A DNA stretch of 60,737 nucleotides from Eubacteriales bacterium (GCA_045533115.1 JAZSHF010000072.1:1-60737), one strand, 5' to 3'. Counted from the stretch's first letter, positions 8,282 to 36,975 are shown. Notes: generated by a model from the sequence alone, not told the origin. Numbers and translations are program-made.

Positions 8282-9124
8282 ATGAAAAAAAGAATTATTA
8301 CCAATCAAACAATAAGCTCGTTTAAGGAGTATTTAATCGAGAACGAAAAAGCAACCGCTACCATCGAAAAGTATATGCGAGATATACGCCTATTTACTGA
8401 ATACGCTACAGACAAGCCCTTGGATAAAGCTCTTGTGTTGGAATACAAGACGTCATTGGAACAGACCTATGCCATCAGAAGTGCAAACTCTATGTTGGCG
8501 GCTCTCAATGCCTTTTTTCGCTTCATCGGGTGGCACGAACTTTGTGTAAAGCAATTTAAGGTGCAAAAAGAGGTGTACTGTTCCGAGGAAAAGGAACTTA
8601 CCAAAGCGGAATACACCGCTCTTGTGAGAGTGGCTGAGCAAAAGGAAAATGAACGCTTATCCCTCGTGGTGCAAACGATCTGCGGAACAGGCATTCGTGT
8701 CAGTGAATTACAAAGTATTACGGTGGAGGCTGTACGCAAAGGAGAGGCAATTGTATCCTGCAAGGGAAAAACAAGAAAAATATTTATTGTAAGCGCCCTT
8801 CGGAAGAAACTGCTTCGATATGCATTAGAACACAAAATAAACTTCGGGATTATTTTCGTGACCAAAAACGGTAAACCTCTTGTCCGCAGTAATATATGGA
8901 GAGAAATGAAGAGTTTGTGTGAACAGGCAGGTGTTTCTCCCCAAAAGGTGTTTCCGCACAACCTACGCCATTTATTTGCGAGAACTTTCTATGGCATCGA
9001 AAAGGATATTGCAAAACTAGCGGATATTCTCGGTCACTCCAACATTAATACCACGCGAATTTATATCATCACAACCGGTGCCGAACATCAGCGACGTATG
9101 GAGAATATGCGGCTAATTATCTAA
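8282..9124 (+). CDS. Tyrosine site-specific recombinase (XerC/D-like, short form), candidate invertase for the adjacent switch
   Basis: 280 aa. Catalytic signature is present: TGIRVSEL (Arg), HNLRHLFA (HxxR) and LGHSNINTTRIY (His...Tyr). RBS GGAGG precedes the ATG. The gene is AT-rich compared with its flanks (by eye). Confidence 0.9.
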   Translation: MKKRIITNQTISSFKEYLIENEKATATIEKYMRDIRLFTEYATDKPLDKALVLEYKTSLEQTYAIRSANSMLAALNAFFRFIGWHELCVKQFKVQKEVYCSEEKELTKAEYTALVRVAEQKENERLSLVVQTICGTGIRVSELQSITVEAVRKGEAIVSCKGKTRKIFIVSALRKKLLRYALEHKINFGIIFVTKNGKPLVRSNIWREMKSLCEQAGVSPQKVFPHNLRHLFARTFYGIEKDIAKLADILGHSNINTTRIYIITTGAEHQRRMENMRLII

Positions 9125-9162: not shown

Positions 9163-9183
9163 ACATAATGGTTATTATGTTGT
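9163..9183. repeat. Left inverted repeat (IR-L) of the invertible segment
   Basis: ACATAATGGTTATTATGTTGT. It is the exact reverse complement of 9419-9439. Internally it has palindromic arms ACATAAT/ATTATGT around an asymmetric GGTT centre. Confidence 0.9.
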
Positions 9184-9344: not shown

Positions 9345-9373
9345 TTGATTTTTCGTTTGTATTATGCTATACT
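9345..9373 (+). promoter_or_regulatory. Sigma-A-type extended -10 promoter inside the invertible segment
   Basis: TTGATT-17 nt-TATACT, with a TGc extended -10 motif (TG at 9365-9366) within the spacer immediately upstream of the -10. Confidence 0.75.
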
Positions 9374-9418: not shown

Positions 9419-9439
9419 ACAACATAATAACCATTATGT
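9419..9439. repeat. Right inverted repeat (IR-R) of the invertible segment
   Basis: ACAACATAATAACCATTATGT, matching the reverse complement of 9163-9183 at 21/21 positions. Confidence 0.9.
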
Positions 9440-9615: not shown

Positions 9616-9810
9616 TTGAAAAACGAGTTACAGAACAAACCGACAGACACTGATGTAAAAACAGAAAGACGACGACTCCTGTGTCCTTTATGCGGCAAGC
9701 ACACGGTACTGTGGTTGCTTCCCGACACTGTGATTAAGAATTTACCGATTAAATGTAAACGATGCGGAAAAGAATGTATGGTAAATGTCGAACCGCTTGA
9801 CCAAGCTTAA
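9616..9810 (+). CDS. Cysteine-rich KTR-domain-like small zinc-ribbon protein
   Basis: 64 aa with a TTG start and RBS AGGTGA. The pattern CPLCGKHT...DTVIKNLPIKCKRCGKE matches the Cys_rich_KTR layout as I remember it (CPxCGxKT...DTxLKNFPLxCPKCKxE). Confidence 0.65.
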   Translation: MKNELQNKPTDTDVKTERRRLLCPLCGKHTVLWLLPDTVIKNLPIKCKRCGKECMVNVEPLDQA

Positions 9811-9954
9811 TACGACGCATCATCATAAACTCTAAACGATTTTACTGATACTTGCTCCCTTCGCAGAAGACTATGTGTAAACCTGACACAAACGTTTAGC
9901 GTTTGTAATTTTTTGTTGAAATTTGTAGTAAACACTTACAAAGGGGAACTTAAA

Positions 9955-10542
9955 ATGAAACAGGATGACTTAAGCCAGGCATTGATTGATGGCACTATCC
10001 ACGTCATTGCCCGGAACGGACTTGATAAAGCCACAACAAAAGCAATAAGCAAAGCAACAGGTATTAACGAGGTATACATATACCGCCTCTTTGAAAATAA
10101 AGAGAGGTTATTTGAAAAAGCTTTCGAATACCTGGATAATCAACTGTTAGAGAAATGCTTGCTCCACATTGACGTGATGTATATGAGTGAAATAGATTAC
10201 GAGACAAGATGCAGAATTTATTTTTTGGCAATGTGGCGCTTTTTTATCGGTAACAAAGATGAAATTTCTATGTATGTCCATTATTATTACTCGCCGTATT
10301 TCAAGAAGTATTCTGCCGAGGCGCACAAAAAAAGATTTCTGCCGCTTGTAAATAAGTTCAGAGATGCCTTTAAGGAGGAAGCGGCTGTATGGCTGATACT
10401 TAACCATATATTAAACGTAATGCTTGATTTTGCTCTAATGGTACATAACGATGAGATGCCCAAAGAAGATAATTACAGTGAGCATGTGTTTCGAGTTATT
10501 TATCAGTCGGTAAAGCAGTATTTCAAAGCGGCTTCGGCTTGA
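9955..10542 (+). CDS. TetR/AcrR-family transcriptional regulator
   Basis: An N-terminal HTH typical of TetR (ARNGLDKATTKAISKATGINEVYIYRLFENKERLF). The ATG at 9955 has RBS AAAGGGGA. The track ORF starts earlier (9913) with no SD. Confidence 0.85.
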   Translation: MKQDDLSQALIDGTIHVIARNGLDKATTKAISKATGINEVYIYRLFENKERLFEKAFEYLDNQLLEKCLLHIDVMYMSEIDYETRCRIYFLAMWRFFIGNKDEISMYVHYYYSPYFKKYSAEAHKKRFLPLVNKFRDAFKEEAAVWLILNHILNVMLDFALMVHNDEMPKEDNYSEHVFRVIYQSVKQYFKAASA

Positions 10543-10554
10543 AGGCGAGTGTGA

Positions 10555-11124
10555 GTGGATAGACCTATGAATAAAAAATTGAAAAAAGCATTGAAAATTA
10601 CGTCTAACTCGCTGTTGGTTTTGGTTGTTATCCTTGTCATTCTCCTTGTTGGTGTCAGAGCAGTAGGGCTTGACATTCTGACTGTGCTGTCCCCGTCGAT
10701 GGAGCCGAAGTATCCTGTAGGATCACTAATCTACCTTGTGGACGTTGATCCGGCAAAATTAGAGGTCGATGACGTTATCACCTATCGGATATCCGAAAAG
10801 ACCACGGCGACACACCGCATCAAGGAGATTATTCCCGACGAGGACGATCCGAGCATTGTCCGGTTCCGTACCAAAGGCGATAACAACGATGATTATGACG
10901 GCAGTCTCGTGGAATTTGAGCAAGTCGAAGGTAAAGTCATCTTCTGTATCCCGCTTCTCGGCTATTTGGCGGTGTATATCCAAAGTCCGCCCGGGCTCTA
11001 CGTTGCCATCGGCACGGCGCTTGCAATTATTTTCTTCGTGATGATCGTGGATACGGTCACCGATGATAAAAAAGTAAAAAATAAAAATGAACATAAAGGA
11101 GAACACGAAAATGAAAAAAACTAA
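10555..11124 (+). CDS. sipW: Signal peptidase I, SipW/archaeal type
   Basis: One N-terminal and one C-terminal TM helix. Catalytic motifs are SPSMEP (Ser), THRI (His) and TKGDNNDD. An alternative ATG start lies at 10567. The 3' end overlaps the next gene by 14 nt. Confidence 0.85.
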   Translation: MDRPMNKKLKKALKITSNSLLVLVVILVILLVGVRAVGLDILTVLSPSMEPKYPVGSLIYLVDVDPAKLEVDDVITYRISEKTTATHRIKEIIPDEDDPSIVRFRTKGDNNDDYDGSLVEFEQVEGKVIFCIPLLGYLAVYIQSPPGLYVAIGTALAIIFFVMIVDTVTDDKKVKNKNEHKGEHENEKN

Positions 11125-11749
11125 ACCGCTTGTTTTGGCACTGTGTGCAGTCCTACTCGTGGCAGGCGCCATCCTCGGAACCGTTGCTTACTTGCAGGAT
11201 ACTGCCGAGGTAGTCAACACATTCACCGTGGGAAACGTACACTTAAAGCTCGATGAAGCTGTGGTGAACGAAAAGGGCGAACCTACCGGCGGCAGAACCG
11301 AAACCGGCAATGCGTACCACCTCATTCCAGGACAAACTTATACCAAGGATCCCACCGTTACCGTTCTGAAGGGCAGCGAGGAATCCTACGTTCGTATGAT
11401 GCTCACCCTTAACTGCGCGAGTGAGCTGGATGCCATCTTTGCCCCCAACGGTGCTGTTCTTACCGAAATCTTCAAAGGCTACGACGCCAATAACTGGAAT
11501 TACGTTGGTGTGACGAGAGGAAACGATAATACGATCACCTATGAGTTCCGCTATAAGGAAAAGGTTACGCCCGAAAAGGATGCCGACCTCGTTCTCGATG
11601 CACTCTTTGACAGCGTGACAGTTCCCAACACCATGACCGGCGCACAGCTCGAAACCATCGCCGATCTGGAAATTTCCGTAGAAGCTCACGCAATTCAGGC
11701 AGCCGGCTTTAACACTGCCGATGAAGCTTGGGCGGCATTCTCTAAATAA
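11111..11749 (+). CDS. TasA/BsaA-like secreted protein with a SipW-cognate signal peptide (candidate major fibre subunit)
   Basis: 212 aa, RBS AAAGGAG. N-terminus reads ...LLVAGAILGTVAYLQDTAEVVNTFTVGNV (TasA-type signal/N-strand). The C-terminal motif HAIQAAGF..A.EAWAAF is shared with the paralogs. Confidence 0.75.
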   Translation: MKKTKPLVLALCAVLLVAGAILGTVAYLQDTAEVVNTFTVGNVHLKLDEAVVNEKGEPTGGRTETGNAYHLIPGQTYTKDPTVTVLKGSEESYVRMMLTLNCASELDAIFAPNGAVLTEIFKGYDANNWNYVGVTRGNDNTITYEFRYKEKVTPEKDADLVLDALFDSVTVPNTMTGAQLETIADLEISVEAHAIQAAGFNTADEAWAAFSK

Positions 11750-11775: not shown

Positions 11776-11829
11776 TTCGTGTTCCTCCGCTTGTTGAAAT
11801 ATAAAATCTGAAGAAAGGAGGAACACGAA
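11776..11829 (+). promoter_or_regulatory. 13-bp perfect hairpin that sequesters the SD of the next cistron
   Basis: ttcgtgttcctcc (11776-11788) is the exact reverse complement of ggaggaacacgaa (11817-11829). The latter contains the GGAGG SD of the ATG at 11832. The loop is 28 nt. Confidence 0.6.
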
Positions 11830-11831
11830 AT

Positions 11832-12467
11832 ATGTATCGCGGAAAATACTCTACACCGAAGCACAGTCACCGCCGCAGAAGCTCTGCATTGAAGGTAGCT
11901 CTTATGTCTTTTGTGGCGTGTCTCATGATCTTCTCCGTGATAGGCGGCTCTCTTGCGTGGCTGATGACTTCAACCGACCCCATCGTTAACGTGTTCACTT
12001 ACGGCGATATCCGCATAACCCTTACCGAAACAAAGGGTGAAGAACTGGGCGACGGACGCTACTTCAAGATGACCCCCGGCAAGGTGATCGAAAAGGATCC
12101 GAAGATCTCCGTACTTGCCGACAGTGAAGATTGCTGGCTGTTCGTAAAAATCGTCGAGTCCAGCGACAAGGCGCTCAGCGATTACATCGAGTACGCCATT
12201 GCCGACGGTTGGACTGCTCTGCAGGAAGCTCCCGGCGTTTACTTCCGTACAGTCGACAACAGCGCAGAAGCGCAGACCTTCTCCGTACTGAAAGACGATA
12301 AGATTACCGTCAAGGGCAGCGTAACGTCGGAAATGCTCCAGGTACTCAACAGCACCAACTATCCCAAGATGACCTTCACCGGTTACGCCGTACAGCGTGA
12401 TATGAGCATCGACGCAATCGACTCCGCCGCAGAAGCATGGGCACTCATCTGCGAAAGCGGCAACTGA
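11832..12467 (+). CDS. TasA/BsaA-like secreted protein, second paralog
   Basis: 211 aa with a basic N-terminus and TM helix, then GGSLAWLMTSTDPIVNVFTYGDI. The C-terminus YAVQ....AAEAWALI parallels gene 11111. Confidence 0.7.
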   Translation: MYRGKYSTPKHSHRRRSSALKVALMSFVACLMIFSVIGGSLAWLMTSTDPIVNVFTYGDIRITLTETKGEELGDGRYFKMTPGKVIEKDPKISVLADSEDCWLFVKIVESSDKALSDYIEYAIADGWTALQEAPGVYFRTVDNSAEAQTFSVLKDDKITVKGSVTSEMLQVLNSTNYPKMTFTGYAVQRDMSIDAIDSAAEAWALICESGN

Positions 12468-12555: not shown

Positions 12556-14067
12556 ATGAAACTTAAAAACATTCTTCTGCATGGTCTCAGCCTTGTCCTC
12601 GTTGCGGCTCTCGCAATCGGCGGCACTGTGGCTTACCTGCAAGACGATGACAGCGATGTCAACGTAATGACCCTCGGCAACGTAAAGATTGAGCAGCACG
12701 AGTATGAGCGTGTTGTAGAAAACGGCGAGTACAAGAAAGAAACCATCAATGGCGCAGATAGCTATGTTCTGAAGGACTTCACTCAGGGCAAGCCCCTACT
12801 TCCTGCTACTGAAATTGATGCCAATGGCCAGCCCTACAACTATGGTGCAGGCGATTATGATGGCACCCGCGTTAAAATGTCTCAGGTTGGCTCCCACGGC
12901 TCTATGGACGTTTTCGTTAACGAGAACGCTGTCGACAAGTTCGTAACCGTGGAAAACACCGGTAAGACTGATGCTTACGTTCGTACGATTATCGCTTATG
13001 AGCTTGGTTCTGTATCCGAAGATAAGTTTGAAGACGTAATCATGACGAGCTGCTTCATGACTGCTCAGGGAGTTTGGAAGGTTACCGATATAGGTGCTGT
13101 TGAAATTGACGGCAATAACTACTTTGTTTCCGAGTATATCTACAATGGCGCAAAGGCTCTTGGCGGCGTTCATGAAAACGGAGTTCTCCCTGCTGGCGAC
13201 ACTACTTACCCCAGCCTTGCTCAGGTTTACATGAAGGCTACCGCAACCAACGAGGATGTTGAGAAGATCGACGGCAACAAGAATGGCACTTACGATATCC
13301 TTGTCGTTTCCCAGGCTGTTCAGGTTGCGGGCTTTGCTGATGCTGAAACCGCTCTGAACGCTGGCTTCGGTGACATCACCACCACCAATCATCCTTGGGC
13401 TGATGGCGTAAATATCCCCGCCGTTGTTGAAGACGCTGACGGACTCGTTGAAGCGCTTGAAAGCGGTAAGGACGTGGTCCTCAACGATGACGTTAAGATC
13501 GACCCCGCCGGTATGAGTAATGCTTACGGTACCACCGGTATCAACGTTAAGAACGGCCAGACCATCGACGGCAACGGCAACACCCTGGACATCAAGGGCG
13601 CAGGCGGCACTTGGGACTCCGGTATCAACACCACCGGCGGCCTGATCAAGAACCTCACCGTTACCGGCTCCTTCCGCGGTATCTTCATCAACCACAACAG
13701 CTCCTACTCCGAGACTGTTGTTCTTGAGAATGTTATCATTGACGGAACTACTTATACCATCTCCTGCGATCAGGGTATGAACCAGAATTTTGAAGCATAC
13801 AACTCCACCTTCAACGGCTGGACTTCCTATGCTGCAACTCTCGGTAATGCCAAGTTCGAAAATTGCAAATTTGGCGAAGGCAACGGCTATGCATTCTTCC
13901 GTCCCTACGCTCCTACCACCTTCGTGGGCTGCGAGTTCGAGGCTGGCTATACTCTCGACCCGAGAGCTGACGTGACCTTCGAAAACTGCACCTTGAACGG
14001 CGTTGCTTTGACCGACGCTAACATTGCAGAGTTGGTTACAGACACTGCAAAGGTAACAGTAAAGTAA
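12556..14067 (+). CDS. TasA-like N-terminal domain fused to a beta-helix-like C-terminal domain (large fibre-associated subunit)
   Basis: 503 aa. The signal region reads LVAALAIGGTVAYLQDDDSDVNVMTLGNVKIEQ. The TasA-like core ends at SQAVQVAGF. The C-terminal ~200 aa are rich in N/G/T turns (GNGNTLDIKGAGG, IKNLTVTG, ENVIIDG, FENCKFG, FENCTLNG), typical of a parallel beta-helix. Confidence 0.7.
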   Translation: MKLKNILLHGLSLVLVAALAIGGTVAYLQDDDSDVNVMTLGNVKIEQHEYERVVENGEYKKETINGADSYVLKDFTQGKPLLPATEIDANGQPYNYGAGDYDGTRVKMSQVGSHGSMDVFVNENAVDKFVTVENTGKTDAYVRTIIAYELGSVSEDKFEDVIMTSCFMTAQGVWKVTDIGAVEIDGNNYFVSEYIYNGAKALGGVHENGVLPAGDTTYPSLAQVYMKATATNEDVEKIDGNKNGTYDILVVSQAVQVAGFADAETALNAGFGDITTTNHPWADGVNIPAVVEDADGLVEALESGKDVVLNDDVKIDPAGMSNAYGTTGINVKNGQTIDGNGNTLDIKGAGGTWDSGINTTGGLIKNLTVTGSFRGIFINHNSSYSETVVLENVIIDGTTYTISCDQGMNQNFEAYNSTFNGWTSYAATLGNAKFENCKFGEGNGYAFFRPYAPTTFVGCEFEAGYTLDPRADVTFENCTLNGVALTDANIAELVTDTAKVTVK

Positions 14068-14081
14068 TTATTTAAGTCCGT

Positions 14082-14152
14082 CCTATCCCTCCCCGTGAGG
14101 GATAGGCGGCAATCAAAGCACATAAGCGATGGTTTGTGTGTTTTGATTGCCG
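14082..14152 (+). repeat. Two-hairpin intercistronic element, copy A
   Basis: Hairpin 1 is cctatccctc-cccgt-gagggatagg. Hairpin 2 is cggcaatcaaagcacataagc...gtttgtgtgttttgattgccg (about 21 bp including wobbles). It begins 15 nt after the stop at 14067. Confidence 0.75.
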
Positions 14153-14245
14153 AAAGGCATAAAGCTTTCTTCGATATAAGACCTGCAGGATCGAAGAAAA
14201 GTTAAGTCTTGAATGCAGGCAAATATCAAAAGGAGGCATACATAT

Positions 14246-16168
14246 ATGTCAAAACTCAAAAAGGTGCTCTTAATGTGCACCACTTATGTGTTGGTTGCAG
14301 CTCTCGCAATCGGCGGCACTGTTGCGTATCTTCAGGATGAAGATAGCGCAGTTAACGTTATGACACTTGGTAACGTTAAAATCGAGCAGATCGAGCTTCA
14401 GCGTGCTGAAGGCGTTGCTCACAACGCAGGTGAAGCAGGAAATGGAAACGGCGTTAAGAACGGCGATCTTGTAGATTTCGTTCAGGATCAGCCGCTTTAT
14501 CCTGCAGTTCCCAAGAACAATGCGGCGACAGACTATACCGCAGAAGCAACCGACTTGTTCTTCTGGGGCGACTACGTTTATTCAGGAACCGCAGGTAACG
14601 GTCTTTGGAACGATAGCAAGCTTTCCAACGTAATGGATAAGTTCGTGTTCGTAAAGAATACCGGTAAGACGGAAGCTTACTTCCGTACCCTCATCGCTTT
14701 TGAGTGTCCCGAGGGAATGGAGTTCAGCGAAGGTCCTGACAAGGAACTTATGATGAACATCAATGGTTCTGAAACCCTCTATGAGTGGGAAGAAATCGGC
14801 TATATTACCGTAGACGAAACTCGTTATCTTGTGATGGAAGCAACCTATCTCAACCCCCTCGCTCCCGGCAACACAGCTCATCCTTCGCTTCTTCAGGTTG
14901 TTCTTACTCACAATGCAACCAATGAAGATATGGAGCTTCTCGGTGGTACTTACGAAATACTCGTTCTCTCTCAGGCTGTTCAGGCTGCTGGTTTTGATAA
15001 CGCCGCTATCGCTCTTAATACTGCTTTTGGTGAATCCGAAGTATACGCTCCCGAGTGGTTCGGCGGCGTACTCGCAGATCACGCCGGTGACACTTGGGAC
15101 GGTACTGTCGATACCTCTTGGTATGACCCGGCTTCCCCTGCTACCGAATATAATATCACCACAGCGGAACAGCTTGCAGGTCTTGCTGAGCTTGTTTCCG
15201 GTGATACTACATTTAAGGGTGTTACCTTCACATTGATGAACGACCTTGATCTTTATTGTGAAGATACCACTGCAAGTGCTGACGGCGATCCTTTGACGTT
15301 TAGACCGATCGGTGATCATTCAAAGAATGGTACTTTTGAAGGAACTTTTGATGGTAATGGAAAGGTTATTTACAATCTTTATCAAAATGGTTGGGATCTC
15401 GGTTATCAGTGGGGAGTATATGGTTCTTACGGTCTGTTCGGCAATCTGAACGATGCTACCGTAAAGAACTTGACCCTCTCCGGTGGCGAAAGCTATATCG
15501 AAGGTGGCGACGTATCCTTTGTTGCCGGTAGTGCTACCGGTACTTGCGTATTTGAGAACATTACGATAGAAGACAGCGTTGCAGCGACCTACAACAACGG
15601 TTGCGGCGGTATTATCGGTTGGTCCGGTGCCGGCAATTATACTTTCAAAAACATTACCATCGCTGAGGATGCGGTTCTTGGCGGTCTTTGGGGCTCCTTC
15701 GATAGTTCTATCGGTGGTATTGTCGGACAGGGCGAGCCCGGTGCGACCTATAACTTCGAGAATGTAGACATCAAGTGTCGTCTTGACGTTTACAATGACG
15801 TTACCGCTGCATATAAGTATTACATTTATCGTATGTCCGGTATGCTGATTGGACGTCTTGAAGAAACGACAACGATCGATGGCACCAATTATCCGGATAT
15901 GAGCAAGTACAACATCACCTGTGCTGATGTAACAGTTACCTACAACGACTGGGCAAATTATCACTACTGTGTTGTAGCCGGTAAGACTGCATGGCGCGTA
16001 GAACCCGGATATGCTTATGGCGGAATTCCTGCAGATCACGATCATAGCACGTGTGCAATTTGTTGTAATGAGCTTCTCGTATTTGATTCACTCTTCGGTG
16101 GAGATCAGTACGGCGTTAGAGGTATTACAACTTACGACGGCGTAACTGTTGTTTACAACAACAAGTAA
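14246..16168 (+). CDS. TasA-like N-terminal domain fused to a large GLUG/beta-helix-like adhesin-type domain
   Basis: 640 aa from the ATG at 14246 (RBS AAAGGAGG). The N-terminus is nearly identical in protein sequence to gene 12556 (LVAALAIGGTVAYLQDEDSAVNVMTLGNVKIEQ). The C-terminal segment ITTAEQLAGLAELVSGDTTFKGVTFTLMNDLDL...FRPIG...FEGTFDGNGKVIYNL resembles repeats of Gram-positive surface proteins. Confidence 0.7.
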   Translation: MSKLKKVLLMCTTYVLVAALAIGGTVAYLQDEDSAVNVMTLGNVKIEQIELQRAEGVAHNAGEAGNGNGVKNGDLVDFVQDQPLYPAVPKNNAATDYTAEATDLFFWGDYVYSGTAGNGLWNDSKLSNVMDKFVFVKNTGKTEAYFRTLIAFECPEGMEFSEGPDKELMMNINGSETLYEWEEIGYITVDETRYLVMEATYLNPLAPGNTAHPSLLQVVLTHNATNEDMELLGGTYEILVLSQAVQAAGFDNAAIALNTAFGESEVYAPEWFGGVLADHAGDTWDGTVDTSWYDPASPATEYNITTAEQLAGLAELVSGDTTFKGVTFTLMNDLDLYCEDTTASADGDPLTFRPIGDHSKNGTFEGTFDGNGKVIYNLYQNGWDLGYQWGVYGSYGLFGNLNDATVKNLTLSGGESYIEGGDVSFVAGSATGTCVFENITIEDSVAATYNNGCGGIIGWSGAGNYTFKNITIAEDAVLGGLWGSFDSSIGGIVGQGEPGATYNFENVDIKCRLDVYNDVTAAYKYYIYRMSGMLIGRLEETTTIDGTNYPDMSKYNITCADVTVTYNDWANYHYCVVAGKTAWRVEPGYAYGGIPADHDHSTCAICCNELLVFDSLFGGDQYGVRGITTYDGVTVVYNNK

Positions 16169-16188
16169 TTTCACAAAAAACAAGCTGC

Positions 16189-16253
16189 CCCAACCCTTCG
16201 GGGTTGGGCGGCAATCAAAGGGTATAAGCAAGCCTTGTGCCTTTTGATTGCTG
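16189..16253 (+). repeat. Two-hairpin intercistronic element, copy B
   Basis: Hairpin 1 is cccaaccc-ttcg-gggttggg. Hairpin 2 is cggcaatcaaagggtataag...cttgtgccttttgattgctg. It begins 21 nt after the stop at 16168. Confidence 0.75.
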
Positions 16254-16303
16254 ATATTAAATGATTTCTCGGCAATAGTTATCGAAAAGCGAGGTATTCA
16301 CAG

Positions 16304-16441
16304 ATGTTATTATTCATTATAGGTCTCATTGCGGGCAGCGTATTTGGATTTGGCGTTTGCGCTATCTGCAGCATGGCTGGTAACAATCACCGCACAAAAG
16401 CATCCAAAGATACCGAAGATAGCGATGCTGCAAGTAAATAA
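16304..16441 (+). CDS. Possible 45-aa single-TM peptide (too short to appear in the ORF track)
   Basis: ATG...TAA encodes MLLFIIGLIAGSVFGFGVCAICSMAGNNHRTKASKDTEDSDAASK. GAGG lies 9 nt upstream. The ORF sits between copies B and C of the hairpin element. Confidence 0.4.
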   Translation: MLLFIIGLIAGSVFGFGVCAICSMAGNNHRTKASKDTEDSDAASK

Positions 16442-16627
16442 CCCCAACACCATACTTTATGCGTTCATTGGCTTCGTTGCCGTATTCCCGGCGATTTTGT
16501 GGTTATGAGGATATTATGGTTATTATTAATTCCGTTTGTAAAGTATCAATTTACTTACAACAGAGATTTTCTCTGTAGTGAGCGTGGTAATAAAATGTGT
16601 CTTGTCTTCAACTTTTTTACCTCGCGC

Positions 16628-16695
16628 CGCCCATCACTCTCTGATGGGCGGCAATCAAAGGGTACAAGCGTGGTTCTTGTGCCTTTTGATTGCTG
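16628..16695 (+). repeat. Two-hairpin intercistronic element, copy C
   Basis: Hairpin 1 is cgcccatca-ctctc-tgatgggcg. Hairpin 2 is ggcaatcaaagggtacaag...cttgtgccttttgattgct. It overlaps the spurious ATG of track ORF 16690. Confidence 0.75.
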
Positions 16696-29686: not shown

Positions 29687-29919
29687 GTATCGCGTCCGAG
29701 GGACGCGATACAACTATGATCGCCTGCGGCGAGCTATGAATTATGATACGATTCGCGCAGTTATGAGTTGCCTGCGGCAACGTTTAAGTTTGAATGCGAT
29801 CATATCATAACGCTTGCGCCGGGGTTCCCCGAAACGAACAACGTGAGTTTTGTGGGTTCGCGACAAAGCCAGGCTCATAACATTTTGCGGAGCAAAATTC
29901 ATAACTGATAACTATACAA
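29687..29919. repeat. Mosaic hairpin-repeat patch flanked by a 16-bp direct duplication
   Basis: Contains gtatcgcgtcc-gag-ggacgcgatac, tcgcctgcggcga, ttgcctgcggcaa and a variant of the ggggttcccc...gggttcgcg module. It is flanked by aaaaaccgacggtttc at 29671-29686 and 29920-29935. Confidence 0.7.
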
Positions 29920-36638: not shown

Positions 36639-36975
36639 CCTTCTCCTGAGGGAGACGGGGGACCGCGGTAGGTTTCGCGTAGCGAAAACTACTGAGTGGC
36701 TGGATGAGGAGTACGTTCCCAATATAGACACCTCAGGAACAACCAAAGCTCATTTCATTCGCTTTGAGACACCTCATCCGCCCCTTCGGGGCACCTTCTC
36801 CCGCTGGAGAAGGTATAACGGTTGCTTCGCATCCTACACCTCATCCGCCAAGTGCCCGAGATCCTTCGACTACGCGATGAGGGGTTCCCCGAAGCGAATG
36901 AAATGAGCTTTGGGGGTTCGCGATAAGGATGACAACGGGCACTTGCCACCTTCCCCTGAGGGGAAGGCAAGACAG
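36639..36975. repeat. Mosaic GC-rich hairpin repeat patch (same family as 1-500)
   Basis: 36769-36820 is identical to 206-257. The module ggggttccccgaagcgaatgaaatgagctttgggggttcgcg is present. A 22-nt internal inverted copy links 36743-36764 to 36892-36913. Track ORFs 36511-36906 and 36755-36970 are translations of these repeats. Confidence 0.8.

Follow-up and report, generated by a model that had tools for sequence, protein, structure and literature searches.

A conserved two-hairpin element, very probably RNA, follows the large genes of SipW/TasA-like fibre operons in Clostridia

In phage early operons, intercistronic hairpins are processed by RNase III (the R sites of T7, and the SP82 sites that are cut by the B. 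subtilis enzyme). These sites are hairpins that resemble one another, each about two helical turns long, and recur at the gene boundaries of one polycistronic mRNA; internal loops direct single-strand cuts in them, after which the upstream message is stabilised by the hairpin left at its 3' end. Another arrangement is that of the HK022 put RNAs, i.e., two stem-loops with bulged stems, one nucleotide apart, which modify RNA polymerase and act in cis on a long transcription unit from a single promoter-proximal leader site. In the cip-cel operon of Ruminiclostridium cellulolyticum, intergenic stem-loops serve both as cleavage signals and as end-protectors, and paired stem-loops (SL1/SL2) occur in several intergenic regions (PMC4423207; PMC10311766). 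In Clostridium perfringens, the sipW-bsaA operon produces a short abundant transcript and a read-through transcript (PMC7395162). Here, we describe a two-hairpin element present in three copies (A, B and C) in a SipW/TasA-like gene cluster of a Eubacteriales bacterium (GCA_045533115.1, JAZSHF010000072.1:1-60737; this whole stretch of 60,737 nucleotides is called the window below). The intercistronic stem-loop that shapes operon expression is already known as a kind of element. What is new here is that the copies form a sequence family, that their two hairpins abut, that they are linked exclusively to large SipW-signal genes in several families of Clostridia, and that large inserts in the loop are tolerated.

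Each copy combines a variable GC-rich hairpin (hairpin 1) with a conserved, longer one (hairpin 2). This architecture had been proposed in an initial annotation of the window, and the sequence reading and the RNA folds agree on it and on the positions collected in Table 1. The compensatory changes then listed are also correct: CAC/GTG in copy A corresponds to GGT/GCC in copy B, and a U.G pair in copy B to C-G in copy C. Copy A begins 15 nt past the stop codon of a 503-aa gene, just 3' of AAGUCCGU, and copy B 21 nt past the stop codon of a 651-aa gene, both distances being as annotated; copy C does precede the last gene of the operon. Folded as RNA of the + strand, copies A, B and C reach -50.4, -43.9 and -42.7 kcal/mol, respectively (z-scores of -9.2, -7.2 and -7.8); in copy C, the RNA fold leaves the junction CG/GGC contested between the two hairpins. 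The reverse complements fold more weakly, by 7-15 kcal/mol, because G.U pairs turn into A.C. The string CGGCAATCAAAG has exactly three matches on the + strand, for a chance expectation of 0.38 (at most one mismatch). A covariance model built from seven related copies sharing identical geometry, and run over the whole 60.7 kb with its filters off, retrieves these three copies only (scores in Table 1), and the next, unrelated match scores 15 bits.

The element recurs in many other genomes. One genome per GTDB species was scanned with the pattern GGCAATCAAAG-N16-34-TTTGATTGC, which gave at least 120 loci (L numbers below). Among the matches listed, about 99 loci belong to Clostridia (Acutalibacteraceae, Oscillospiraceae, Ruminococcaceae, Faecousia, several Lachnospiraceae, Christensenellaceae and Anaerovoracaceae), and nearly every Clostridial match has a variable GC-rich hairpin directly 5' of GGCAATC. 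The other 20 or so among these matches are scattered over phyla and devoid of hairpin 1, and are about as numerous as estimated by chance. The closest relatives among the matches listed are L107 and L088, two contigs of an Acutalibacteraceae metagenome-assembled genome. Searching the same loci with the covariance model, as the initial annotation had advised for relatives, retrieves further copies that the exact pattern misses, for a total of 146 non-redundant sense-strand copies in 99 loci, with at most four per locus. An independent sample of eight SipW loci was chosen through a protein homologue search that used no DNA pattern; the element stands after large genes in all eight. With these loci included, the family amounts to at least about 170 copies in about 107 Clostridia contigs. 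Two cultured strains are among the carriers: Yeguia hominis NSJ-40, with four copies in L105, and Cuneatibacter caecimuris DSM 29486, with one in L073.

Over these roughly 107 loci, the copies are nearly always inside SipW/TasA-like clusters, and the gene maps place every copy co-directional with the flanking cluster genes. This confinement sets the element apart from a generic genome-wide repeat, which would have undone the initial view. The open reading frames (ORFs) upstream of the copies match TIGR04088, the model of the SipW-dependent signal peptide, in 60 cases out of 91, and others match the BsaA family, TIGR04089 or SipW; those downstream encode SipW-signal proteins, SipW, or proteins with isopeptide pilin domains. 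The association depends strongly on gene size. In the collected loci, the element lies 3' of 79% of the SipW-signal genes of at least 450 aa, 46% of those of 300-449 aa and 5% of those below 300 aa, and directly after none of the TetR and FctA-type genes. A recurrent gene order is TetR-SipW-element-large gene-element-SipW-small TasA genes. Over the family, hairpin 1 starts a median of 23 nt past the stop codon, and the next start codon lies a median of 35 nt past hairpin 2.

No match to copies A and B was obtained by BLAST in plasmid and phage collections. Rfam 15 holds no such family: the whole window gives no match at gathering thresholds, and the 13.9-16.9 kb region searched at E<=10 gives noise only (snoRNA models at 17-22 bits, for thresholds of 34-100). 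No description of the element was found in the searchable literature on SipW/TasA and stem-loops, camelysin RNA motifs, the core sequence and TasA-like clusters of gut Clostridia.

The pairing is strongly supported by covariation. In a 150-copy alignment to the model, 97.2% of the cells hold standard pairs, compared with 40-50% when the partners are slid by 1-3 columns and 85.8% after shuffling. Double-sided changes are found in 26 of the 29 pairs, all the hairpin 1 pairs covary, and the 20 modelled pairs of hairpin 2 are formed in 97.4% of cases. As this alignment is fitted to the model, we made a model-free recount on the eight distal hairpin 2 pairs left free by the search pattern: 94.9% are paired, versus 82.5 +/- 0.8% after shuffling (maximum of 85.5% in 1000 shuffles). 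In this recount, G.U or U.G cells outnumber A.C or C.A cells 210 to 20. Moreover, the antisense model scores about 30-45 bits below the sense one, and two wobble positions are themselves conserved in the 150-copy alignment. Since G.U exceeds A.C ten to one, the sense strand is the folding strand. The wobble asymmetry, the lower antisense scores and the invariable co-orientation make RNA the simplest reading, and these sequence patterns favour it over double-stranded DNA; folded single-stranded DNA of the sense strand stays formally conceivable. The further copies and the strong covariation of the wide alignment thus bear out the annotated view of a structured RNA module linked to the operon, and we are highly confident that the element is a cis-acting structured RNA of the operon mRNA.

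Several features of this RNA are peculiar. The 5' arm of hairpin 1 is C/U-rich and its 3' arm G/A-rich, with an excess of C-G over G-C of about 20 to 1 (C is on the 5' arm in about 95% of the G-C pairs), and AAGUCC is present 5' of it in about 45% of the copies. Only 0-1 nt separates the two hairpins, which can thus stack as a dumbbell of about 30 bp with mRNA entry and exit at one nick. Hairpin 2 is followed by an A-rich tail, (Y)GAAA, and GGCA occurs within 30 nt downstream in 37% of the copies versus 14% of the controls. In four loci (L121, L126, L127 and L128), the arms of hairpin 2 are 60-420 nt apart, and GC-rich hairpin-array sequence lies between them. The lower stem of these copies is still complementary, with the compensatory pairs GGCGAUC/GAUCGCC, GGCAAGC/GCUUGCC and GGCAAGCAGAG/UUCUGCUUGYC, and the compensation operates within one copy, not between neighbouring copies. 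A gene-enclosing stalk, formed by the 3' arm of one copy and the 5' arm of the next, was rejected since the variant stems of L128 are compensated within each copy. The loop inserts of L126-L128 resemble a second, unrelated repeat family of the window, i.e., arrays of short GC-rich hairpins (188-490, 29813-29862 and 36769-36972), one example of which, ACACCTCATCCGCCCCTTCGGGGCACCTTCTCCCGCTGGAGAAGG, is 100% identical at 206-257 and 36769-36820. Ahead of one class of large genes, a leader 3' of the element, GAGGGCU..CCC..GGCAAAAGGGACGGCGAnCCCGUCAnUCGCCCGAAC, shows alternative small hairpins (L121 13766-13830, L126 13567-13630, L128 14085-14150) and may be a further RNA element.

By its position, the two-hairpin element belongs to the 3'-untranslated or intercistronic region of the large, adhesin-type TasA-fusion genes, within the polycistronic mRNA of SipW/TasA-like fibre operons, and on these data its helix is more likely to act once the transcript is complete. 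By analogy with the cip-cel operon, we give an about even chance to its being an intercistronic mRNA processing and stabiliser module, according to the logic of selective RNA processing and stabilisation (SRPS); among the roles listed in the initial annotation, this one fits best. Copies A-C are stable stem-loops (-43 to -50 kcal/mol, z-scores of -7 to -9) inside a co-directional cluster, and the copies of the family lie close to stop codons (median of 23 nt), as is the case for SRPS-type stem-loops. In copies A and B, the hairpin 2 stem offers 20-21 contiguous pairs, i.e., the helix length (at least 20 bp, about two turns) demanded of an RNase III substrate. This duplex would mark the site recognised or cleaved by an endoribonuclease, with RNase III cutting within it or RNase Y in the A-rich single strand just 3' of hairpin 2. 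The stable GC-rich hairpin 1, free in sequence, would then be left as a 3'-terminal barrier against 3'-to-5' exonucleases, and the stability of the message of each large gene, hence its dosage, would be uncoupled from that of its neighbours. RNase III of B. subtilis was described as a narrow-specificity enzyme (PMC4838370), a property that would fit a sequence-conserved target such as hairpin 2.

Several points weigh against this processing and stabilisation module. Cleavage at the element, the identity of the nuclease and any effect on stoichiometry are purely what we infer. The abutting hairpins leave RNase Y no single-stranded gap between them. The primary sequence of hairpin 2 is kept across families beyond what is known for SRPS stem-loops (CGGCAAUCAAAG is found in 94 of 146 copies), part of the apparent lower-stem invariance coming from the exact pattern used for the first collection; this conservation hints at a sequence-specific partner, and none was found. 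A pure barrier role does not account for the C-rich polarity of the hairpin 1 5' arm. Finally, the element stands after the large fusion genes and not after the small TasA-like genes, which might be expected to encode the abundant subunits.

Could the element instead be an attenuator, i.e., an intrinsic terminator inside the operon that leaks? In that case, some polymerases would be halted after each large gene by the upper half of hairpin 2 (GGGCAUAAG...CUUGUGCC) and the UUUUGAUU run behind it, the A-rich 5' arm pairing with the U-run and hairpin 1 adding stability to the 3' end. The absence of a convincing U-run, noted in the initial annotation, holds for the sequence 3' of hairpin 2 (mean of 1.8 T in 8 nt, n=145 copies), with one qualification for the hairpin itself: UUUUGAUU lies within the 3' arm, directly 3' of the upper stem, and is itself base-paired. 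The tract just 3' of hairpin 1, GGCAAUCAAAG, is without U-tract. The boundary pair is G.U rather than G-C in 80 of 101 unique copies (113 of 150 in the model alignment), with four consecutive U kept, and several cluster-final copies have no canonical terminator within 300 nt. Precedents exist as well, since internal terminators control the stoichiometry of operons in Ruminiclostridium, where their stems are long, their U-tracts paired and their U content low (PMC9045158), and a terminator predicted after C. perfringens bsaA yields a short sipW-bsaA mRNA and read-through (PMC7395162). We nevertheless consider a terminator unlikely. The pairing of hairpin 2 is kept across loop inserts of 60-420 nt, which argues against a simple terminator: in the four loci concerned, the arms are too far apart for a local co-transcriptional hairpin, and such a hairpin would have no need of, and hardly any use for, the lower stem that these copies keep and compensate. 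The lowest pairs of the stem covary (C-G/G-C closing pair) though they are beyond the release point; serial terminators would, in the common gene order, starve the small fibre genes downstream of two copies; and the cross-family sequence conservation is left unaccounted for. In the window, a separate canonical terminator closes the operon, so the element is not its terminator; that hairpin illustrates the form of a genuine terminator in this genome. Conservation beyond pairing needs (lower stem of hairpin 2, fixed wobbles, AAGUCC, 3' GAAA, excess of GGCA) speaks for a sequence-specific site for a trans-acting factor, protein or RNA polymerase, that would act on elongation through a re-loaded processive antitermination, on translation of the next gene, or on mRNA localisation. 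The loop is dispensable and tolerates inserts, the tight spacing of 25-40 nt to the next start would permit translational effects, and a Cys_rich_KTR zinc-ribbon ORF and a TetR gene recur in the clusters. On the contrary, no candidate is universal (the KTR ORF is present in just about 7 of about 16 loci with a visible 5' end, and proteins of the TetR family bind DNA), the duplex is perfect, with neither bulges nor internal loops, unlike most regulatory RNAs that bind proteins or polymerase, and some copies lie at cluster ends, with no cluster gene downstream; we find such a site quite unlikely. An equally doubtful proposal is that the element forms the cis half of a lineage-wide post-transcriptional system, in which the dumbbell behind each large adhesin gene would be recognised by a factor specific for its sequence, thereby deciding the choice among several alternative TasA-fusion adhesins of a phase-variable operon; this factor could be a narrow-specificity RNase III, the Cys_rich_KTR zinc-ribbon protein or, in a put-like manner, RNA polymerase. 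Two other candidates were rejected: a TetR operator in DNA, given half-sites 18-420 nt apart and a covarying interior, and a promoter using TTGATT in the 3' arm as -35 box, given the lack of a correctly spaced -10 and a next start codon just about 30 nt away.

The initial annotation had also mentioned a recombination or cassette-boundary role, and the element could be, at the DNA level, either an attC-like folded site for a neighbouring recombinase or a homology block for the swap, deletion or duplication of adhesin genes. It brackets large, highly variable tandem genes; a XerC/XerD-like recombinase lies upstream of it in the window and in at least 13 related loci; element and flanks are more conserved than the genes between them, giving a mosaic identity profile; and folded single-stranded DNA also tolerates G.T. 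This role is weakened by the tyrosine recombinase having its own inverted repeats. At every locus checked, perfect inverted repeats of 21-25 bp surround a promoter segment of about 235-280 bp (21-bp repeats in the window), and, because these repeats enclose the promoter, the recombinase belongs to an invertible promoter and not to the element. Moreover, L126 and L127 have the element without an adjacent recombinase, the stem has neither the extrahelical bases nor the unpaired spacer of attC sites, the element is missing after most small genes, hairpin 1 is left without a function, and the 10:1 wobble asymmetry and the strict co-orientation fit RNA more simply. We thus hold a DNA-level role to be very improbable. 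Even less credit, close to none, goes to a selfish palindromic repeat accumulated by chance in these clusters, similar to repetitive extragenic palindromes and bacterial interspersed mosaic elements (REP/BIME) or to miniature inverted-repeat transposable elements (MITE). Hairpin 2 does resemble two 20-bp terminal inverted repeats around a variable interior of up to 420 nt, and other hairpin-array repeats are present in the same genome. However, neither the window, with its three copies in one operon, nor the 107 locus contigs show the dispersal typical of REP/BIME or MITE: the unfiltered search of the 60.7 kb gives no copy elsewhere, the plasmid and phage collections give none, and about 170 copies are alike in cluster type, orientation and class of position. 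Neither compensatory changes nor a G.U bias would be expected for inverted repeats defined by a transposase, and no target-site duplication was seen.

The invertible promoter is itself a recurrent feature. In the window, the recombinase gene is followed by the repeats ACATAATGGTTATTATGTTGT, between which a promoter-like sequence faces the fibre operon (Table 1). Homologous recombinases with the same repeat consensus are found in seven related loci (L072, L051, L038, L066, L020, L075 and, more weakly, L090), and six of the eight protein-sampled loci have the recombinase gene. Judged from these sequences, the invertible promoter implies phase-variable expression of the whole fibre operon. An action of the recombinase on the two-hairpin element was set aside once its own inverted repeats had been found. 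An ORF of 64 aa for a Cys_rich_KTR zinc ribbon (PF14205, E 4e-9; 9616-9810) is located in the interval from the invertible promoter to the TetR gene and has homologues at the same place in L123, L075, L126, L072, L020 and L002; as a partner of the RNA element, this protein is a speculative candidate.

The other genes of the operon are given in Table 1. An exact-protein look-up of the 503-aa gene product gave no match on record. The N-terminal TasA-like halves of the 503-aa and 651-aa genes (12594-13373 and 14287-15033) share 73-77% DNA identity, as tandem paralogues, with no relationship between their C-terminal halves. In L107/L088, the closest relative among the matches listed, the product of the first large gene has 72% protein identity and the second just 44%, and the element and intervening 5' leader are conserved; this uneven identity between genes, compared with the conserved element and leader, indicates that the locus evolves as a mosaic. 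The intergenic regions after both small TasA-like genes are without the two-hairpin element. Upstream of the second of these genes, a 13-bp hairpin (11776-11830) pairs UUCGUGUUCCUCC with GGAGGAACACGAA, the latter being the Shine-Dalgarno region of that gene, and is a possible element of translational control. The 45-aa membrane ORF that separates copies B and C is kept in 10 related loci with 39-66% identity, likewise ahead of the copy-C subtype. Five genomes share, almost unchanged, the block of about 105 nt that precedes copy C (81-92% identity to L075, L097, L111 and L016), and this block is better conserved than the flanking genes; it contains a small hairpin, CAGAG...CUCUG, and its UUUACCUC could pair, across copy C, with GAGGCAAA at the ribosome-binding site of the last gene. 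This block may be an internal promoter or a leader. A small minus-strand ORF starting from the 5' flank of copy C was rejected, as its reading frame is not conserved.

Table 1. Coordinates of the three element copies and of the surrounding features in the window
Feature	Position	Strand	Description
Copy A, hairpin 1	14082-14091/14097-14106 (14082..14106)	+	10-bp GC-rich stem CCUAUCCCUC/GAGGGAUAGG, loop CCCGU
Copy A, hairpin 2	14107-14127/14132-14152 (14107..14152)	+	21-bp stem CGGCAAUCAAAGCACAUAAGC / GUUUGUGUGUUUUGAUUGCCG, 3 G.U, loop GAUG; 79.1 bits
Copy B, hairpin 1	16189-16196/16201-16208 (16189..16208)	+	8-bp stem CCCAACCC/GGGUUGGG, loop UUCG
Copy B, hairpin 2	16209-16228/16234-16253 (16209..16253)	+	20-bp stem, 4 G.U; 77.0 bits
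Copy C, hairpin 1	16628-16636/16642-16650 (16628..16650)	+	stem CGCCCAUCA/UGAUGGGCG; final two bases common to hairpin 2
Copy C, hairpin 2	16649..16695	+	ends 36 nt 5' of the TTG start at 16732; 55.7 bits
280-aa XerC/D-like tyrosine recombinase	8282-9124		directly upstream of the inverted repeats
Perfect 21-bp inverted repeats	9163-9183 and 9419-9439		flank 235 bp
Promoter-like TTGATT-17-TATACT	9345-9373		inside the repeats, facing the fibre operon
TetR gene	9913-10542		part of the co-directional cluster
SipW-type signal peptidase I	10555..11124	+	defining gene of the cluster type that hosts the element
Small TasA/camelysin-like protein gene 1	11087-11749		co-directional cluster
Small TasA/camelysin-like protein gene 2	11832-12467		co-directional cluster
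503-aa protein gene	12556..14067	+	SipW-dependent-type signal peptide, pectate-lyase-like adhesive C-terminal domain; copy A is its 3' element
651-aa paralogue gene (640 aa from ATG 14246)	14213..16168	+	SipW-type signal peptide; same kind of large protein as the 503-aa one; copy A 5', copy B 3'
45-aa small single-pass membrane ORF	16304..16441	+	between copies B and C
Near-invariant non-coding block	16520..16627	+	directly 5' of copy C; travels with the copy-C subtype in related genomes
225-aa protein gene, Spy0128/FctA-type isopeptide pilin domain	16732..17409	+	last gene of the operon; copy C upstream
Canonical intrinsic terminator	17508..17540	+	A-tract, 13-bp stem, U7; end of the operon

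In gut and rumen Clostridia, clusters of the SipW/TasA-like type are widespread and have hardly been studied; their likely products are surface fibres that carry large, variable adhesive domains as tips or decorations. The element is a ready marker for locating these clusters and a handle on the setting of gene dosage within a long, phase-variable operon. With its length of about 70 nt, it is also a compact natural part for expression tuning in Clostridia, as was proposed for the cip-cel stem-loops. For RNA biology, it represents a well-supported family missing from Rfam, and its abutting hairpins, its fixed wobble pairs, the C-rich/G-rich polarity of hairpin 1 and the 400-nt loop inserts call for an explanation. 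If a dedicated factor did read the dumbbell, the element would define a new class of operon-internal RNA signal for the choice of fibre and adhesin in gut Clostridia.

How, then, does the element compare with the known systems? Like the phage RNase III sites, it is repeated at the gene boundaries of one polycistronic mRNA; however, its hairpin 2 duplex is uninterrupted, a separate hairpin 1 would be the protector, and the operon is a chromosomal one for fibres. With the put RNAs, it shares the layout of two hairpins 0-1 nt apart, but it is repeated after genes, perfectly paired, and tolerant of huge loop inserts. Integron attC sites are likewise imperfect palindromes placed after cassette-like ORFs in one orientation, with a conserved base, a variable tip and a tyrosine recombinase nearby. 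The element differs from them by the absence of extrahelical bases or spacer in its perfect duplex, by not following every gene (5% of the small cluster genes), and by a wobble bias that fits RNA; the recombinase of the window, with its own 21-bp inverted repeats, scores 54 bits for an integron-integrase cut-off of 265. The internal terminators of cellulolytic Clostridia (PMC9045158) and of bsaA (PMC7395162), the latter in a SipW operon, also consist of a stem-loop after the gene of a secreted component, with a U-poor tract paired with an A-rich arm, whereas the element adds hairpin 1, cross-family sequence conservation and a lower stem that is compensated when the arms are hundreds of nucleotides apart. 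The SRPS stem-loops of cip-cel are alike in belonging to Clostridia, in serving a long operon for an extracellular multi-subunit assembly, and in being stable stem-loops just past stop codons, often two per intergenic region (PMC4423207, PMC10311766). They differ between intergenic regions and form no sequence family, and processing is demonstrated there and proposed here. The element, on the other hand, constitutes one family, with a conserved hairpin 2 sequence, abutting hairpins, about 170 copies across families of Clostridia, and an exclusive linkage to SipW/TasA-like clusters.

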